Positions 28,057-42,859 of a stretch of 64,000 nucleotides of DNA are shown here, piece after piece. The translations under genes and the position numbers were made by a program. Within the stretch, counting starts at the first letter, position 1, and every line of letters begins with the position of its first letter. A model generated the notes under the pieces. It was not told the origin of the DNA and did no database searches. It worked only from the letters and a program-made list of their open reading frames with translations. Source of the stretch: Gemmatimonadota bacterium (lineage in GTDB: Bacteria; Gemmatimonadota; Gemmatimonadetes; JACCXV01; JAHWKZ01); assembly GCA_035524965.1 (NCBI GenBank), contig DATLFH010000019.1:5753-69752 (forward strand). Direction: 5' to 3'.

Positions 28057-28243
28057 GTCGAATGCACCTCCCATACGATTCGAAATCAAGTTGGAAGATA
28101 CCGCGCGCGAACGCTTCAACGCAAGCTTGGGAGGGTCGGCGGATCGCCTTCCGTGGCGCCCTCGGGCACGGTCCCGTAGCGCACGCCAGGCGCGATGCGA
28201 GGTGCGGCTGCCTCCGATGGGTGTAGACCGTACATTCGGGCCG

Positions 28244-29812
28244 ATGGCGGACTCCAAGCGCATCCTCTGGGTCGACGACGAGATCGGCGGCCTCAAGTCC
28301 CACATCCTGTTCCTCGAGAATCGCGGCTTCGCCGTCACCACGGCCCCTAATGGCGAGGACGCGCTGGCGGTCCTCTCCGAGAACGGGTTCGACTGCGTCC
28401 TGTTGGACGAGCAGATGCCCGGCATGCGCGGCATGACGGTGTTCCAGCGGATCCGCGACACCCATCCCCGCCTCCCCGTCGTGATGGTGACGAAGAGCGA
28501 GGAGGAGGGACTGATGGACCAGGCGATCGGCCGCCGCGTGGACGACTACCTCGTCAAGCCGATCAACCCCAACCAGGTCTTATCGGTCCTCAAGCGCCTC
28601 CTCGAAGGATCGCAGATCCGTCACCAGACGATCGCGCAGGAGTTCAGCCGCCGCTATCTGGACCTCGAGGAGGAGCGGAAAACCCGCGTCACGTGGGACG
28701 ACTGGGTAGCGCTGTACAGGGAGATCCTGGCATGGGAGCTCCGGCTCATCGAGGCGGGCGAGCGGGGGCTCCTGGAGAGCCAGCGGGAGATCCACAAGGC
28801 GGCCAACGCCGACTTCACCCGCTACGTCGTCCGTAACTACCGCAACTGGGTGGCGGCGCGACCGGGCGATCGCCCGACACTCTCGCCCGACGTGATCGGA
28901 GAGCGGGTCCAGCCGCTTCTCGAGGCCGACAGCGGGCCCGTCTTCTTCGTGATCATCGACTGTCTGAGGCTCGACCAGTGGCTCGCCATCCGGGACGCGC
29001 TCGAACCGGACTATACGATCGACGAGTCGTTCGCCGGTTCGATCCTGCCGTCGGCTACGCCGTACTCGCGCAACGCGATCTTCAGCGGCTGGTTCCCGCG
29101 ACAGATCGCCGACAAGCACCCCCATCTGTGGATCGGCGACGCCGACATCGAGGGCTCGCTCAATCCGCACGAAGGGGAGCTTCTGGAGAGGCAGCTTAGA
29201 AGGAAGGGGCTCGGCGAGGTCTGCCCCGTTCAGTACACGAAAGTGTACACCGCCGACGACGGGGCGGCGGCGCTCAAGAAGCTTCCGCAATGCTTCCAGA
29301 GCCGGCTGTCGGCCTTCGTGTTCAATTTCATCGATGTCCTGACCCACGGGCGCTCGGAGTCCGAAATCCTTTTGGAGATCGCGCCCGACCCCGAGGCGTT
29401 CCGCTCGCTCAGCCGGTCGTGGTTCCTCCACTCGCCGCTTTACGAGCTGTTGCGTCAGTCCGCGAGGCACGGCGTGCGCGTCGTCCTCACGACCGATCAC
29501 GGATCGGTGCACTGCTTGAGGCCCGCGACCGTGTACGCGCGGCGTGACGCATCGCAGAATCTGCGCTACAAGTTCGGGACCAACATACGCGCCGAGGATG
29601 CGGAGGCCGCGTTCAGGGTCGTCGACCAGGCCGAGATCGGCCTGCCGGACCTGGGCATCAATGTCGCCGCGCTGATGGCGGTCGAGGACTACTACTTCGT
29701 CTATCCCACCAAGCTGCGCGAGTACCAGAGCCGTTATTACGGCGCCTTCCTGCACGGCGGGATCTCGCTCGAGGAGCTGATCCTGCCGGTCGCGACGCTG
29801 ACCCCGAGGTAG
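28244..29812 (+). CDS. response regulator with receiver domain fused to PglZ (alkaline-phosphatase-like) domain, PorX-like
   Basis: CheY-like N-terminus (ILWVDDE...DCVLLDEQMPGMRG...KP) followed by about 400 aa of PglZ-type sequence. Native GC. Confidence 0.8.
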   Translation: MADSKRILWVDDEIGGLKSHILFLENRGFAVTTAPNGEDALAVLSENGFDCVLLDEQMPGMRGMTVFQRIRDTHPRLPVVMVTKSEEEGLMDQAIGRRVDDYLVKPINPNQVLSVLKRLLEGSQIRHQTIAQEFSRRYLDLEEERKTRVTWDDWVALYREILAWELRLIEAGERGLLESQREIHKAANADFTRYVVRNYRNWVAARPGDRPTLSPDVIGERVQPLLEADSGPVFFVIIDCLRLDQWLAIRDALEPDYTIDESFAGSILPSATPYSRNAIFSGWFPRQIADKHPHLWIGDADIEGSLNPHEGELLERQLRRKGLGEVCPVQYTKVYTADDGAAALKKLPQCFQSRLSAFVFNFIDVLTHGRSESEILLEIAPDPEAFRSLSRSWFLHSPLYELLRQSARHGVRVVLTTDHGSVHCLRPATVYARRDASQNLRYKFGTNIRAEDAEAAFRVVDQAEIGLPDLGINVAALMAVEDYYFVYPTKLREYQSRYYGAFLHGGISLEELILPVATLTPR

Positions 29813-29834
29813 GGTTTCCTTTGCCTCCCAGGAG

Positions 29835-29863
29835 TTGACAAGCGACTTCTAAGCTGCTATACT
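29835..29863 (+). promoter_or_regulatory. near-consensus sigma70 promoter (TTGACA - 17 nt - TATACT) heading the low-GC cassette
   Basis: TTGACA at 29835-29840, a 17-nt spacer, then TATACT at 29858-29863. GGAGG at 29904-29908 sits 5 nt before the GTG at 29914. Confidence 0.55.
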
Positions 29864-29913
29864 ATTCTTAATAGCGTAGTAGCTTGGGAAGGGTTCCTTT
29901 CGCGGAGGTTGCG

Positions 29914-30375
29914 GTGAGAATAGTTTGCCTTGAAGGAAGCAGCCTAAATCAGTTGAGCAGGCTCGGCGTCAGCTTCCAAGATCTGACGCCGCATGGGGCT
30001 GGTAGTTCCATCTATCACTTGGTCGTAATGACTGAGGAGCAGGCCGCTGCACTCAGGGAACTCGGGCTCGGAGGGGAGGACATCACGCCCACAGTTCTTC
30101 AGCGAGCCGAACCAGCTTCAAATGGAGGCTACGTTCATTGTCGCGGCGGGAGAATCCCAGATGGCCTTCGGCTCCGCAAGAAGTACAAAGGTCGAGTTAT
30201 CGAGGCGGAAACGAGGGGCGGAAAATTTTGGGTTAACGGACGCAGTTTTTCCAATCCGTCACGCCCTGCGTGCGAAATAACCGGTACCTCGGTCAATGGT
30301 TGGGTTTGGTGGAATTACTTCGATGAATCGAGTGGAGACTGGCGCTCTCTCAACGATCTTCCCGATAACGAGTGA
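29914..30375 (+). CDS. small protein with DUF4357-like C-terminal domain (first gene of low-GC cassette)
   Basis: Started at the GTG behind a GGAGG RBS; the track's TTG at 29884 is an alternative. The C-terminal half reads KFWVNGRSFSNPSRPACEITGTSVNGWVWW, which resembles the DUF4357 signature. GC is about 50%. Confidence 0.6.
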   Translation: MRIVCLEGSSLNQLSRLGVSFQDLTPHGAGSSIYHLVVMTEEQAAALRELGLGGEDITPTVLQRAEPASNGGYVHCRGGRIPDGLRLRKKYKGRVIEAETRGGKFWVNGRSFSNPSRPACEITGTSVNGWVWWNYFDESSGDWRSLNDLPDNE

Positions 30376-30457
30376 GCTTGAGTCACGAGCCTTGCACCAA
30401 TGGCAGCGAAAATGAGTTTCGGGAAGAGAACCGTCAGTCTACTGACAGGATCCTGAC

Positions 30458-30781
30458 ATGATGAGGGAAAGAGTAACGATTGATCAGTATTGTTCCTCAG
30501 CAGGAACCCGCGAACGCGGGCGGCGGGTCTATCCGGAGATCCTGAAAGCGGCAGAAGGTGATAGAGATCTAGAGATCTCTTTCGAGAAAATAGATTTCGT
30601 GTCTCCATCCTTTCTGGATGAGACCGTCGTTCGCTTGGTCGAAGAAGATCCCTCAATCGCTAAGCGCATAACCGTCATCGGACTGCAGCCTTTTGCGGCG
30701 CGAATGCTGAAAACAGCTCTGGGGAAGCTGGGAATTTCCACGGAAATCGTCAAAGACACGACCGAGCGAAGGGCAAGCTAG
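30458..30781 (+). CDS. STAS-like DUF4325 family protein (anti-sigma-antagonist fold)
   Basis: 107 aa. ISFEKIDFVSPSFLDE matches the DUF4325 core. Low GC. Confidence 0.65.
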   Translation: MMRERVTIDQYCSSAGTRERGRRVYPEILKAAEGDRDLEISFEKIDFVSPSFLDETVVRLVEEDPSIAKRITVIGLQPFAARMLKTALGKLGISTEIVKDTTERRAS

Positions 30782-31653
30782 ACGCGCGGTCTGGGATCCC
30801 AGACGATTTCAACGAGAGTTCCAGGAAGAGGGGAACAGCTTTCCCGGGCGGATATACCCCTATCACCGGCATACACGTGAGCGGCACCGCTCCTAATTCC
30901 GAGATAGCCTCCATGTTCTCGAACCGCCTCAACAATCATGGGAAGGCCGAGTCCTCCCCTGCCAATCCTGCTTGAGACATGCGGGTCTAAAGCACGAAGC
31001 ACCATTTCCGCGTCGGATAGCGTGCCGAGTCTCCCCTCGAGGGCTGCGGGGATGCCGATGCCGCCATCTCCGACTGCGATCTGCACTCTCTGATTATATC
31101 GTTGGACAGTGACTATCGCCTCACGGCTCTGGCTATGGGACTCGATGTTGCTGAGCAGCTCACCCAGGCCGAGACGAAGGTATTCTCCGCTGATTTCGAG
31201 ATCTTTTCCTCGCATGACGATCGTCTCAAAAATTCTTTGCGTGAGATCCTCGACCTGATCGTCGTTCTTCAGCTCGAAGATCGACACCTCGAGCAACTTG
31301 TCCGCCAGGTCTCTCTCGCTCAGCTGCAATTGTTCGATCGGGGGGCGAAACCCGACAGGGAGATCTGAAACCGCAGCCGGAAAGTGCATTCTCACTAGAT
31401 AGTTCCTGACATCCAAGGAATCGGGCAGCTCGACCAAAACCTTCGACGCTCCACGATCAAGGAGATCTCGGATGAGCCAGTACAGATAGATCAAGCCGAA
31501 GGGCTCGATGAACTCGACGTGGTTCATGCGAAGGACAACCTCAGGTTCTACGGCACCTGTCGGGGAGAGCCGGAAAGTCGTGCCTTGCTTGAGTCGAATC
31601 TCGTTGAGAGAAAGCACGAGGCGATCTCCCTCTCGCTGGAGTTCCAAAGGCAT
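30778..31653 (-). CDS. GHKL (histidine-kinase/RsbW-like) ATPase with N-terminal STAS-like region
   Basis: N box ELLSNIESHS, G1 box VGDGGIGI and G2 box GRGGLGLP. Convergent with the STAS-like gene, with the stop codons overlapping by 4 nt. Low GC. Confidence 0.7.
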   Translation of the reverse strand: MPLELQREGDRLVLSLNEIRLKQGTTFRLSPTGAVEPEVVLRMNHVEFIEPFGLIYLYWLIRDLLDRGASKVLVELPDSLDVRNYLVRMHFPAAVSDLPVGFRPPIEQLQLSERDLADKLLEVSIFELKNDDQVEDLTQRIFETIVMRGKDLEISGEYLRLGLGELLSNIESHSQSREAIVTVQRYNQRVQIAVGDGGIGIPAALEGRLGTLSDAEMVLRALDPHVSSRIGRGGLGLPMIVEAVREHGGYLGIRSGAAHVYAGDRGISARESCSPLPGTLVEIVWDPRPRV

Positions 31654-31669
31654 CGACCTCTCCGCTGGT

Positions 31670-32323
31670 TCAGCCTCCTGAAGCGAATCCCGCGAGAGCC
31701 TCCTTGCCCCGATCCACGATGGGCTCCCCGTGGGTCAGGAGGAGGTGGCGGAAGTCGCGCTCGAGGAGGGCGTGGCAGGCTTTAGCGACGCGCGCCTTCA
31801 AGGCCGGCGGGTCGTCCCCATACCAGCCGTCCGGCGCGTAACTGAGGGGCCCCTCGCCGTCCCGCAGCAGGATATCCGCGAAGGTCAGGGCCCCGCCGGC
31901 GACGGGCACGTAGAGGACGGTTTCGTCCAGCTCCTGGCCCGGAACGGCGAGCGCTTCGATCCCGCCGGTCAGCGCCGCGCCGTGGTTGAACGGCTCAGCG
32001 GCCGGCACACGCTCCCGCACGTGGTCGAGCCCGGCGCGATGGCAGAGTACCCGGCAGCCGAACGCTTCGGCGAAGGCGGAGCTCTCCCGTGAGTGGTAGC
32101 GATTGGTCACCAGGATCGTCTCAGGCGCCGGCCGGCCCTCGAACCACTCGAACCGCGCGCCCGGGATCATGGGGTCGATCAGCACGCGGGATCCCTCCAC
32201 GTAGTAGGAGCTGACGACGATCCTTTGCTCCGGGTGGAATGCGGTCCAGTGATGAAGTCCCGGCGCGATCTCCCGGACCGGTCCCGGGGGCGGAGTTTCG
32301 GCGCCCTTCGCGGCACCGGTCAT
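31670..32323 (-). CDS. MBL-fold-like hydrolase family protein (paralog 1)
   Basis: Paralogous to the next gene (VTNRYHSRES / LTNRHHYRHS; LLTHGEPIV / LLAHGEPIV). Confidence 0.55.
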   Translation of the reverse strand: MTGAAKGAETPPPGPVREIAPGLHHWTAFHPEQRIVVSSYYVEGSRVLIDPMIPGARFEWFEGRPAPETILVTNRYHSRESSAFAEAFGCRVLCHRAGLDHVRERVPAAEPFNHGAALTGGIEALAVPGQELDETVLYVPVAGGALTFADILLRDGEGPLSYAPDGWYGDDPPALKARVAKACHALLERDFRHLLLTHGEPIVDRGKEALAGFASGG

Positions 32324-32946
32324 GATCCCGCCGTCTCCTTTCGCTTGCCCACGAACCGGGCGAGCGCCTCCCGACCCCCGCCTACGATCGGCTCGCCGTG
32401 CGCCAGGAGGACATGACGGAAGTCGTGCTCCTCGACAAGGCGGCCGAGCGACTCCCGGAGACCCGCCTTGACCCCCTCCGGATCCTCACCCATGTATTCG
32501 TCGGACACGAACCTCAGATCTCCCTCCCGGATGACCGCATCCCCGATCGCCAGGATCCCAGCCTCGCGCACCGTGTGGAACGCCGTCTCCTCCGGACAGA
32601 GCACTCCGATCTCGATCGCCAGGAAGCCGTTCGGGAAGTCATCCCCGGCGGCAAACGGCTCGACCTCCTCGCCGGATGTGAACTCGTGCATCCCCGCCCG
32701 ATGGCAGCGCACGGTCGCGCCGTAGGCGCCGGCCAGCTCGCCGCTGTGCCTGTAGTGATGGCGGTTCGTCAGCAGGATGTCGTGCGGCTCGCCGTGGCGC
32801 CGGAACCACTCGACGCCCTCCTCCGGCACCCGCGGGTCGATCAGCACACCGCCGTCGGCATCAGTCAGGTAGTACGAGTGGATATCGATTCCCCACTTCT
32901 CGTGCTGGGTCGTCCAGTGGAAAACGCCGGGCAGGATCTCATTCAT
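32320..32946 (-). CDS. MBL-fold-like hydrolase family protein (paralog 2)
   Basis: Tandem duplicate with a 4-nt overlap. Confidence 0.55.
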   Translation of the reverse strand: MNEILPGVFHWTTQHEKWGIDIHSYYLTDADGGVLIDPRVPEEGVEWFRRHGEPHDILLTNRHHYRHSGELAGAYGATVRCHRAGMHEFTSGEEVEPFAAGDDFPNGFLAIEIGVLCPEETAFHTVREAGILAIGDAVIREGDLRFVSDEYMGEDPEGVKAGLRESLGRLVEEHDFRHVLLAHGEPIVGGGREALARFVGKRKETAGS

Positions 32947-41674: not shown

Positions 41675-42859
41675 CTACTGCGGTACGATCTTGAAGACGC
41701 CGCCCTCGGCGGTCAGGATGTACAGCTCTCCATCGGAGTCTTCCCCGAACGAAGTCACGCTGGATTGGGGCGGCTCGATCTCGGACCACCGGCGCGGGTC
41801 GGTCGCCTCTCCGCCGGACAACCGGAAGCTGCGCACGAATCCGCTGCAGAAATCGGAGTAGAAGTAAAGTCCTTCAAGCGAGGGAAGCGCGTCACCCCGG
41901 TAGACGTGGCCGCCGGTCACCGAGCAGCCCTGGTCGTGCGAATATTCGAGGACCGGCAGCGTCAGCCCCTCCGTATCGCAATCTTCCCGCGGCTCGAAGC
42001 AGCGCGACCCTTCCATCACGTTCCACCCGTAGTTGAGTCCTCCGCCGGCTCCGTCGACGGCGTTGATCTCCTCGATCGCGTTCTGTCCGACGTCGGCGAT
42101 GTAGAGGTCGCCGATCTCGCGATCGAAGGCGAAGCGCCACGGGTTGCGGAGACCGTAGGCCCAGATCTCGCCGCGGGCGCCGGCCTGGTTGACGAACGGG
42201 TTATCCGGCGGGACGGCGTACGGCTCCACGCCGTCGATGTCGAGCCGCAGGATCGAGCCCAGGAGCGTCCCCAGGTTCTGGCCGTGACCTTGCGGATCGC
42301 CGCCCGAGCCGCCGTCCCCCAGACCGACGTACAACATCCCGTCCGGACCGAAGACGATGAGCCCCCCATTGTGGTTGCTGAACGGCTGGGCGACGGTCAG
42401 GATCGTTCGGACCGGCGCGGCGTCCGCGCGATTCGGATCGCCGGACACCCGGTACTCGACCACCCGCGTGTCGCCGGCCGTGTCCGTGTAATCGACGAAG
42501 AACCGGCCGCTGGAGGCGAAGTCCGGATGCAATGCGATCGAGAGGAGCCCCTGCTCGCTGCCCCTCGAGACGAGCGCGGTCACATCGAGGAAGGGATCCG
42601 GCAACACCTGGCCGTTCTCGACGACGAGGACCCGGCCCCCCTTCTCGACTACGAAGAGGCGCGGATCTCCCTCCGGTGCGGTCAGGTGGACCGGGAAGTC
42701 GAGCCCGGTCGCGATCGGGCGGAGAGTAGGCCGGGAGTTCCCGCCGTTCGGATCGGGGTCCGGATCCGGCCCCGACTGATTGACCTGGCCATTGGCACAC
42801 GCAATCCCGAAGGCCAGCACCGGGACGAACCCGAGGCGTAGTTGGTGGAAGGCGCGCAT
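41675..42859 (-). CDS. PQQ-dependent sugar dehydrogenase (soluble glucose/sorbosone dehydrogenase family), lipoprotein
   Basis: Lipobox, then beta-propeller motifs (HNGG, GDGG, YGLRNPWRF). Confidence 0.75.
   Translation of the reverse strand: MRAFHQLRLGFVPVLAFGIACANGQVNQSGPDPDPDPNGGNSRPTLRPIATGLDFPVHLTAPEGDPRLFVVEKGGRVLVVENGQVLPDPFLDVTALVSRGSEQGLLSIALHPDFASSGRFFVDYTDTAGDTRVVEYRVSGDPNRADAAPVRTILTVAQPFSNHNGGLIVFGPDGMLYVGLGDGGSGGDPQGHGQNLGTLLGSILRLDIDGVEPYAVPPDNPFVNQAGARGEIWAYGLRNPWRFAFDREIGDLYIADVGQNAIEEINAVDGAGGGLNYGWNVMEGSRCFEPREDCDTEGLTLPVLEYSHDQGCSVTGGHVYRGDALPSLEGLYFYSDFCSGFVRSFRLSGGEATDPRRWSEIEPPQSSVTSFGEDSDGELYILTAEGGVFKIVPQ

Follow-up and report, generated by a model that had tools for sequence, protein, structure and literature searches.

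A convergent kinase-STAS gene pair in a low-GC islet of a Gemmatimonadota genome, related to the CapK-CapS and VapKSC signalling modules

What might be the function of two genes that run towards each other and share the letters of their stop codons, with no recognizable effector gene beside them? Such a pair was observed in a 64,000-nucleotide (nt) stretch of DNA, referred to below as the window (contig DATLFH010000019.1, positions 5,753 to 69,752, of assembly GCA_035524965.1), which originates from a Gemmatimonadota metagenome-assembled genome (MAG) with a GC content of about 68%. One gene encodes a protein of 107 amino acids (aa) and the other a protein of 291 aa. A preliminary description, based on the letters and their open reading frames (ORFs), had reported a DUF4325 gene and a GHKL-ATPase gene in convergent orientation with overlapping stops; the ORFs, the shared tetranucleotide and the Pfam domains all agree with this. 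In the explanation that we favour, and to which we assign slightly better than even chances, the locus belongs to the CapK/VapK-CapS/VapS family and is a self-contained signalling module of two genes, acquired horizontally. The features of the pair, in window coordinates, are as follows.

30458-30781, plus strand: gene of a single-domain STAS-like protein (DUF4325), VapS/CapS-like according to Pfam, profile comparison and an AlphaFold2 (AF2) model; presumed kinase substrate
30602-30610, plus strand: S49-P50-S51, candidate phospho-acceptor serines at the N-terminus of helix 2, with S51 preferred and S49 as the alternative
30778-31653, minus strand: gene of a STAS-GHKL protein, VapK/CapK-like according to HATPase_c, hhalign matches to VapK and CapK, and phrog_3364; presumed serine kinase
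31273-31653, minus strand: N-terminal STAS-like domain of the presumed kinase (aa 1-127), with invariant F48 (31510-31512), P51, F52, G53 and W59
30790-31206, minus strand: GHKL (Bergerat-fold) domain of the presumed kinase (aa ~150-288), holding the N, G1 and G2 boxes
31135-31161, minus strand: N box (E165, N169, H173)
31054-31068, minus strand: G1 box
30943-30963, minus strand: G2 box
30778-30781, both strands: overlap of the two stop codons, the tetranucleotide CTAG being common to both

The larger protein is an N-terminal STAS-like domain fused to a SpoIIAB-like GHKL domain. HATPase_c was placed by Pfam at residues 159-256 (32.9 bits, against a cut-off of 26.4). A word-index protein search yielded 15 homologues at 40-56% identity, besides the database entry of the window protein itself, and 14 of them were aligned with the window protein as its close clade. 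All three boxes that the preliminary description had recognized as complete were invariant in this alignment (N box, E165-x3-N169...H173; G1, D196-G-G-I-G200; G2, G231-x-G-G-x-G236-L), and E165, N169, D196, G198, G200, G234 and G236 were invariant across 22 diverse relatives of the kinase. Also invariant in the close clade was an N-terminal motif, F48-x-x-P51-F52-G53...W59; together with an hhalign match to VapK that spans both domains, it bears out the earlier suggestion that the ATPase carries a STAS-like domain of its own. The start codon of the 291-aa form is supported by the homologues and by the AF2 model over M43, where the database entry P0001 (249 aa) begins and strands one to three of the STAS-like domain are lost; AF2 modelling made use of shallower alignments without the locus-derived sequences. 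The kinase further matched phrog_3364 (E 6e-20), which is annotated as function unknown. A two-component histidine kinase was considered and excluded: neither HisKA nor DHp was found in the protein by Pfam at E<=1, and the histidine-kinase matches in NCBIfam were far below their cut-offs and covered the ATPase domain alone.

The preliminary description had regarded modules of this kind as poorly characterised, a view overtaken by the report of VapK/VapS and CapK/CapS as ssDNA-activated anti-phage kinase-substrate pairs (ssDNA, single-stranded DNA; Chambers et al., EMBO J 2026, PMC13373217). CapK is a kinase with a helix-turn-helix (HTH), a STAS and a GHKL domain, and CapS a repressor in which a STAS domain is joined to a winged HTH (wHTH); activation of CapK by ssDNA leads to phosphorylation of CapS at S54 and de-repression of the adjacent immune operon. 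CapK-CapS (PDB 9Z71-73) is located upstream of CBASS, Bub, Thoeris and other immune operons, and in 443 of the 443 capK genes reported capS is immediately next. In VapKSC (PDB 9Z7O), VapK is a STAS-GHKL kinase, VapS a short-tailed STAS antitoxin and VapC a PIN toxin; the system protects against a phage, and protection is abolished by the substitutions S48A in VapS and F54A in VapK, the latter residue being called equivalent to CapK W68 on structural grounds (PMC13373217). As a kinase of the CapK/VapK type with a DUF4325/STAS substrate was thus described in 2026, the pair in the window is not categorically new in kind.

The VapK, CapK and CapS sequences, obtained from the supplementary files of the same paper (PMC13373217), were compared with profiles of the two window families. 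The kinase profile aligned with VapK over both domains (hhalign probability 93.9%, E 1.6e-7, window residues 39-281 on VapK 44-284), with VapK F54 placed on F48, and with CapK over the linker and the GHKL domain (94.9%, E 4.7e-8), with the catalytic N218 of CapK placed on N169. By these profile comparisons, VapK and CapK are the nearest characterised relatives of the 291-aa protein. For the STAS family profile, the best match in the PDB was Escherichia VapS (9Z7O_A, E 9.4e-4), and in the reverse direction a VapS fragment matched an annotated DUF4325 protein; PDB searches with the single sequence returned nothing useful, VapS being reached by the family profile only.

The small protein exceeded the gathering threshold of Pfam DUF4325 (PF14213; 34.9 bits against 23, E 1.2e-8) and was assigned to this family instead of the canonical STAS families of Pfam. 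DUF4325 is the 'STAS-like domain of unknown function'. Its AF2 model (pLDDT 88.3) consists of a STAS fold alone plus a disordered tail, and the leading Foldseek matches of the model were all STAS proteins (E 0.04-0.5). With DUF4325 as the only Pfam domain and no further fold in the model, no wHTH was detected on this protein, which therefore cannot be a repressor of the CapS type. Proteins of the SpoIIAA type are phosphorylated at the start of helix 2, which in the model comprises residues 50-63. The preliminary description had proposed a search for a conserved phosphorylatable serine or threonine, and two were found: across 13 relatives V48, P50, S51 and F52 were invariant, and the position of S49 was occupied by Ser or Thr. 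When the STAS profile was compared with CapS, S54-F55, of which S54 is the proven phosphosite, fell on S51-F52. S51 is thus the best candidate for the acceptor, as predicted from the alignments and the model; S49 is retained as an alternative because HMMER aligns it with VapS S48. A truncated relative of 75 aa, gp33 of the Gordonia phage Phishy (4410-4637 of locus L021; DUF4325 core AAISFADELIKE), follows the 'histidine kinase' gp32 and keeps only the serine equivalent to S51, which favours S51.

Set beside VapKSC, the window pair has the same two-domain STAS-GHKL kinase of about 290 aa without an N-terminal HTH, and the same kind of partner, a DUF4325-type STAS protein of about 110 aa with a short C-terminal tail and a conserved serine at the start of helix 2. 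It differs in that no PIN/VapC gene was found in the window islet, by Pfam, or in any of 11 clade loci compared, in that its genes converge on overlapping stops whereas VapKSC is a co-directional K-S-C operon, and in a kinase identity of about 24%. With CapK-CapS it shares a homologous linker and GHKL domain, the NYLxR motif, the catalytic asparagine (N218 = N169) and the acceptor Ser-Phe motif (S54-F55 = S51-F52); unlike that system, it has no HTH on the kinase, no wHTH on the STAS protein and no immune operon downstream, the flanks of the window pair being lipopolysaccharide (LPS), MBL-fold and PorX-like genes, and it is convergent whereas capK and capS run in the same direction in the reporter construct.

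Conservation of the pair was followed in a few related loci drawn from genome, viral and metagenome collections. The convergent clade comprises the window and 14 loci (L001-L008, L013, L023-L027), some of which are the same or a near-identical contig recovered twice. All 15 loci were convergent, with 3' ends ranging from an 18-nt overlap to a distance of 30 nt, and the arrangement was kept down to relatives matching the family profile at E 1e-38. The kinase and STAS genes were adjacent in every locus examined. An all-versus-all BLASTP of 133 ORFs located <=3 kb from the pair in 11 clade loci gave no cross-locus match; no third gene is conserved and, as no flanking ORF is common to the 11 loci, the pair is the only conserved unit. 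Its neighbours in the clade vary: HNH nucleases and a transposase HTH in L001, a Type ISP restriction enzyme in L004, peptidases in L005, and a HIRAN protein with an excisionase-type HTH in L007. In L007/L008 (3062-3667, a Gemmatimonadota MAG) the HIRAN-domain gene is directly upstream of the kinase gene and shares its strand. As HIRAN domains bind the 3' ends of ssDNA, the presence of such a gene beside a presumed ssDNA-sensing kinase is suggestive.

More distant relatives (23-29% identity) were co-directional, with the kinase first; they were found in Chloroflexia, Dehalococcoidia and other metagenomic loci, on an IMG/VR contig and on a Nostoc plasmid. In a Chloroflexia MAG (L009, 6759-7535), the gene after the kinase encodes 258 aa with what appear to be two tandem DUF4325-like repeats, in which LTYTF and LSYSF replace VSPSF. 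On the Nostoc linckia plasmid (L018, 3896-5416), a kinase that has no N-terminal HTH precedes a STAS protein of 197 aa whose C-terminal tail resembles the wHTH of CapS, and two large hypothetical genes come next; this locus may be a CapKS-like regulator of an operon. One further locus, L011, was discarded as a relative, its protein being an ordinary histidine kinase. An exhaustive profile search showed the STAS-GHKL kinase family to be large, with 1,347 clusters at 50% identity (E <= 1e-10); nearly all of the best 150 of these were 260-320 aa long and matched in both domains. Among the loci sampled a known output was recognized in Nostoc alone, the rest having neither repressor tail nor PIN gene, and the effector-less pair may, judging from these loci, be a common form among the relatives.

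Related pairs were also found in temperate phages. The phage kinases have the same architecture (25-27% identity by tblastn), and each is followed by a DUF4325 protein; no PIN gene was annotated after these pairs and no wHTH was detected on the DUF4325 proteins. In prophages of Streptococcus agalactiae and S. dysgalactiae (LYGO9, Javan39) the pair lies between the lysin and paratox genes, and the kinase and STAS genes overlap by 7 nt; in Marinitoga phage MPV1 it is beside a serine integrase, and in Gordonia phage Phishy between the tail genes and the integrase. In the Francisella prophage KIRK, the gene of a DUF4325 protein of 112 aa comes after that of a hypothetical protein of 293 aa; the two, likened to the pair by size and annotation alone, are a few genes from a cI repressor on one side and an integrase on the other. 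In contrast to the window pair, the phage pairs, including those of phrog_3364, are co-directional, with overlapping or closely spaced genes.

The surroundings of the pair in the window also speak of mobility. The two genes are located in an islet with a GC content of 0.50-0.58, compared to 0.64-0.76 in its flanks; the islet is horizontally acquired, and the preliminary description was correct in assigning it a foreign origin. Besides the pair it contains a third ORF and a promoter-like sequence.

29813-31669: low-GC islet of ~1.85 kb, with a PorX-like response-regulator/PglZ gene on one side and an MBL-fold gene on the other
29835-29863, plus strand: match to a sigma-70-like promoter (TTGACA-17-TATACT and an upstream TG; agreement at 11 of 12 consensus positions; a consensus match only)
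29884-30375, plus strand: 163-aa ORF with a DUF4357/RAMA/DUF2924-like C-terminal domain (sub-threshold in Pfam, coding status uncertain)

The genes on both sides of the islet are of housekeeping types, identified by Pfam as a receiver-PglZ (PorX-like) protein, NifU, a Kdo transferase and a rhodanese on one side, and two MBL-fold paralogues, an MsbA-like ABC transporter and a heptosyltransferase on the other. To the left, at 28223-29812 (plus strand), a receiver domain is fused to an alkaline-phosphatase-like PglZ domain in a PorX-like build, with the GC content of the core genome. To the right, tandem MBL-fold paralogues of 217 and 208 aa (31654-32946, minus strand) are directly upstream of the kinase and on its strand. 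The stop codon of the first is separated from the kinase start by 16 nt that include a GGAGAGG Shine-Dalgarno sequence, and with this short gap behind host MBL-fold genes the kinase may be transcribed by read-through from them. On the opposite strand, the promoter match could, from its sequence, drive the 163-aa ORF and the STAS gene; it stands exactly at the islet's left boundary. Such a sequence is unusual where genomic GC is ~68%, and the islet may have brought it in. No tRNA gene was found near the islet edges; farther away, at 42681-42767 (plus strand), ARAGORN reported a 'tRNA-???' with the four-base anticodon cgcg, which is either an artefact or an unusual tRNA-like element. The search for att-like repeats at the edges gave only short imperfect repeats inside the flanking genes. 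Among them are 14-nt direct repeats, 93% identical, at 29763-29776 and 31755-31768, within core genes on either side of the islet; these could have arisen by chance in GC-rich DNA or have been left behind by the insertion.

Transcriptional interference or antisense regulation between the two genes had been described earlier as built in. Of this claim the geometry has stood, the tail-to-tail arrangement being strongly conserved. The antisense effect is a conjecture from that geometry, no conserved terminator or RNA element having been detected. A weak terminator-like hairpin is present on the kinase strand at 30431-30448, just past the STAS start, and none like it recurred in nine other loci folded, as judged by eye. 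Folding of the STAS leader was no better than that of shuffled sequences (z = 0.07), and no Rfam match was obtained at the locus. A cluster of GTCAG/CTGACA half-sites at 30431-30458 (ccGTCAGTctaCTGACAGGATCCTGACAtg) abuts the start codon of the STAS gene and could be an operator or a weak terminator of the kinase strand; its fold is not significant, and inspection by eye of the nine other folded loci showed no counterpart. The convergent geometry precludes the translational coupling that the overlapping genes of the co-directional relatives suggest, and, with no space between the genes for a terminator, it makes some antisense read-through plausible; as no terminator, hairpin or RNA family is conserved, antisense control is kept here as a hypothesis.

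A possible mechanism for the module that we favour can be outlined. The 291-aa protein would be a serine kinase in which a SpoIIAB-like GHKL domain is regulated by its own N-terminal STAS-like domain, and the 107-aa DUF4325 protein would be the substrate dedicated to it. To judge from its homology with VapK and CapK, the kinase probably becomes active in response to ssDNA resulting from DNA damage or phage replication; this ssDNA would be seated in a groove between the kinase domains that includes F48. The active kinase would then phosphorylate S51, or failing that S49, where helix 2 of the STAS protein begins, and phosphorylation would alter the binding partners of the STAS protein. Whereas CapS carries a wHTH and VapS is bound to VapC, no output partner is encoded here; the target would thus have to be in trans (a host or phage factor) or be the kinase itself. 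The module is found in Gemmatimonadota, Streptococcus, Gordonia and Marinitoga, which likewise points to a universal component of host or phage, or again to the kinase. Each gene has its own promoter and the 3' ends abut, and convergent transcription may help to set the ratio of kinase to STAS protein.

Several observations weigh against this explanation. As the equivalence of VapK F54 and CapK W68 is structural, the alignment of F48 with F54 is suggestive of ssDNA sensing and no proof of it. The window kinase is no more than about 23-24% identical to VapK and CapK, and the CapK lysines predicted to touch ssDNA (K237 and K239) fall in a loop that is variable in the window clade. The profile match between the STAS protein and CapS is weak (probability 15%, E 1.8e-3), and Foldseek support for its STAS fold is consistent yet statistically weak. 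In the window, LPS and housekeeping genes surround the islet, with no defence island, and neither protein matched the PADLOC 2.0 models except for a PglZ match to the kinase at E 0.056; this match is noise and has no relation to the neighbouring receiver-PglZ gene. Finally, no effector is present at the locus, and a role in defence or as a toxin-antitoxin system is for this reason conjecture.

The alternative that survives best is that the kinase is itself the effector of a stand-alone abortive-infection or toxin-antitoxin-like system, with the STAS protein as a decoy substrate or antagonist absorbing its basal activity. The ssDNA of an infection would hyper-activate the kinase, the STAS pool would be exhausted or released, and essential proteins of host or phage would be phosphorylated or sequestered. 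This is a specific version of the explanation given above and the one that we prefer, though with low confidence; we consider it possible, at about one chance in four. It is consistent with the lack of a third conserved gene in 11 loci, with the recurrence of the two-gene unit near integrase and lysis genes in temperate phages of unrelated hosts (the Francisella prophage pair included), with the restriction and HNH genes that adjoin clade pairs, and with the phage protection conferred by the related VapKSC (PMC13373217). The convergent genes with their separate promoters also recall some restriction-modification systems. In such systems the toxin and antidote genes are separately controlled. 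Against this, there was no PADLOC match and no defence-island context in the window, and the kinase of the characterised relatives serves solely as a sensor, the effector being VapC or the downstream operon.

A broader claim is that the pair is an autonomous, mobile immune or exclusion system triggered by DNA damage or ssDNA and spread by temperate phages and genomic islets, in which the kinase or the released STAS protein would directly hit a universal target of host or phage and, in one deep clade, the tail-to-tail lock would set the ratio of kinase to substrate by convergent, mutually antisense transcription. We put this forward tentatively and think it rather unlikely as a whole. No stand-alone kinase-STAS defence pair was found described in the literature searched, and two features of the pair, the effector-less two-gene unit and the tail-to-tail lock within a deep clade, appear to be new to PADLOC 2.0 and to that literature.

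Could the output be encoded after all by the 163-aa ORF? The STAS protein would then bind or control a DUF4357/RAMA-like partner, in a split analogue of CapS or of VapS-VapC. The ORF and the STAS gene are co-directional, 82 nt apart and behind the near-consensus promoter; the C-terminal domain group of the ORF is found with restriction and mobile elements, and the outputs of the family are modular (a wHTH in CapS and the Nostoc relative, PIN in VapKSC). Residues 90-157 gave consistent matches to DUF2924, RAMA and DUF4357 in Pfam, all sub-threshold, and PADLOC returned weak PDC-S14 matches to the C-terminus. By tblastn, stand-alone 'DUF4357 domain-containing proteins' of 141-147 aa were retrieved from Streptomyces and Azonexus plasmids; the ORF may accordingly be a real small gene, but these DUF4357 homologues are not beside kinase-STAS pairs. 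In addition, the ORF is missing from the gene calls of an independent assembly of the locus (a Logan contig), a k-mer search found no homologue in the protein collection, and the ORF was absent from the other clade loci; in L005 and L007 the STAS gene is preceded by small ORFs, which are dissimilar to the 163-aa one. The coupling to a DUF4357-like protein that the preliminary description had pointed out is thus not recurrent. We treat the ORF as a passenger of the islet and not as a conserved partner, and consider its role as the output improbable.

The likeness to RsbV/RsbW raised a further candidate, in which the kinase would be an anti-sigma factor and the unphosphorylated STAS protein an antagonist that displaces the sigma factor, as in the RsbV/RsbW and SpoIIAA/SpoIIAB switches. 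At the level of the fold the likeness stands: both components have their counterparts there, the STAS protein there is phosphorylated by a GHKL serine kinase where helix 2 begins, and S49-P50-S51 is at the matching site. As a sigma-factor module, however, the pair does not fit. SpoIIAB and RsbW are single-domain anti-sigma kinases of ~140-160 aa whose genes accompany those of a sigma factor and, usually, a PP2C phosphatase, whereas the window kinase has 291 aa and a fused STAS domain without counterpart in either. A Pfam scan of the eight genes flanking the pair found neither sigma factor nor PP2C, and none is annotated at the other loci inspected. The small protein belongs to DUF4325 and not to a canonical STAS family, and the profiles point to VapK and CapK. 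A module that moves between phyla and phages, moreover, cannot depend on one cognate sigma factor. We regard this candidate as quite improbable.

Lastly, the pair might be what decay has left of a VapKSC or CapKS locus, without its effector and no longer functional, as the tiny islet, the missing effector and a possibly degenerate third ORF might suggest. This is very improbable in view of two full-length proteins whose catalytic and acceptor motifs stay invariant in homologues at 40% identity and even further away, a stable clade-specific convergent geometry, and the recurrence of the effector-less pair in many independent contexts, intact temperate phages included.

Taken as a member of the CapK/VapK-CapS/VapS family, the locus extends a recently described group, and nothing in it conflicts with current understanding. 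The CapK/VapK kinases are a newly recognised route from DNA damage or phage ssDNA to a phosphorylation signal, for which two outputs are known so far, a repressor and a PIN toxin. If the pair does act as an autonomous immune or exclusion system, it would represent a third and minimal output mode of the family, with an unusual control by gene geometry. Knowledge of the target of a lone STAS protein, or of the kinase, would tell if the module serves as a general-purpose sensor acting in trans. The conserved tail-to-tail overlap offers a test case for the control of a kinase-substrate pair by the geometry of its genes. As temperate phages of several phyla carry the module, it may be speculated that it serves in prophage exclusion or as a RecA-independent damage sensor for lysogeny decisions.

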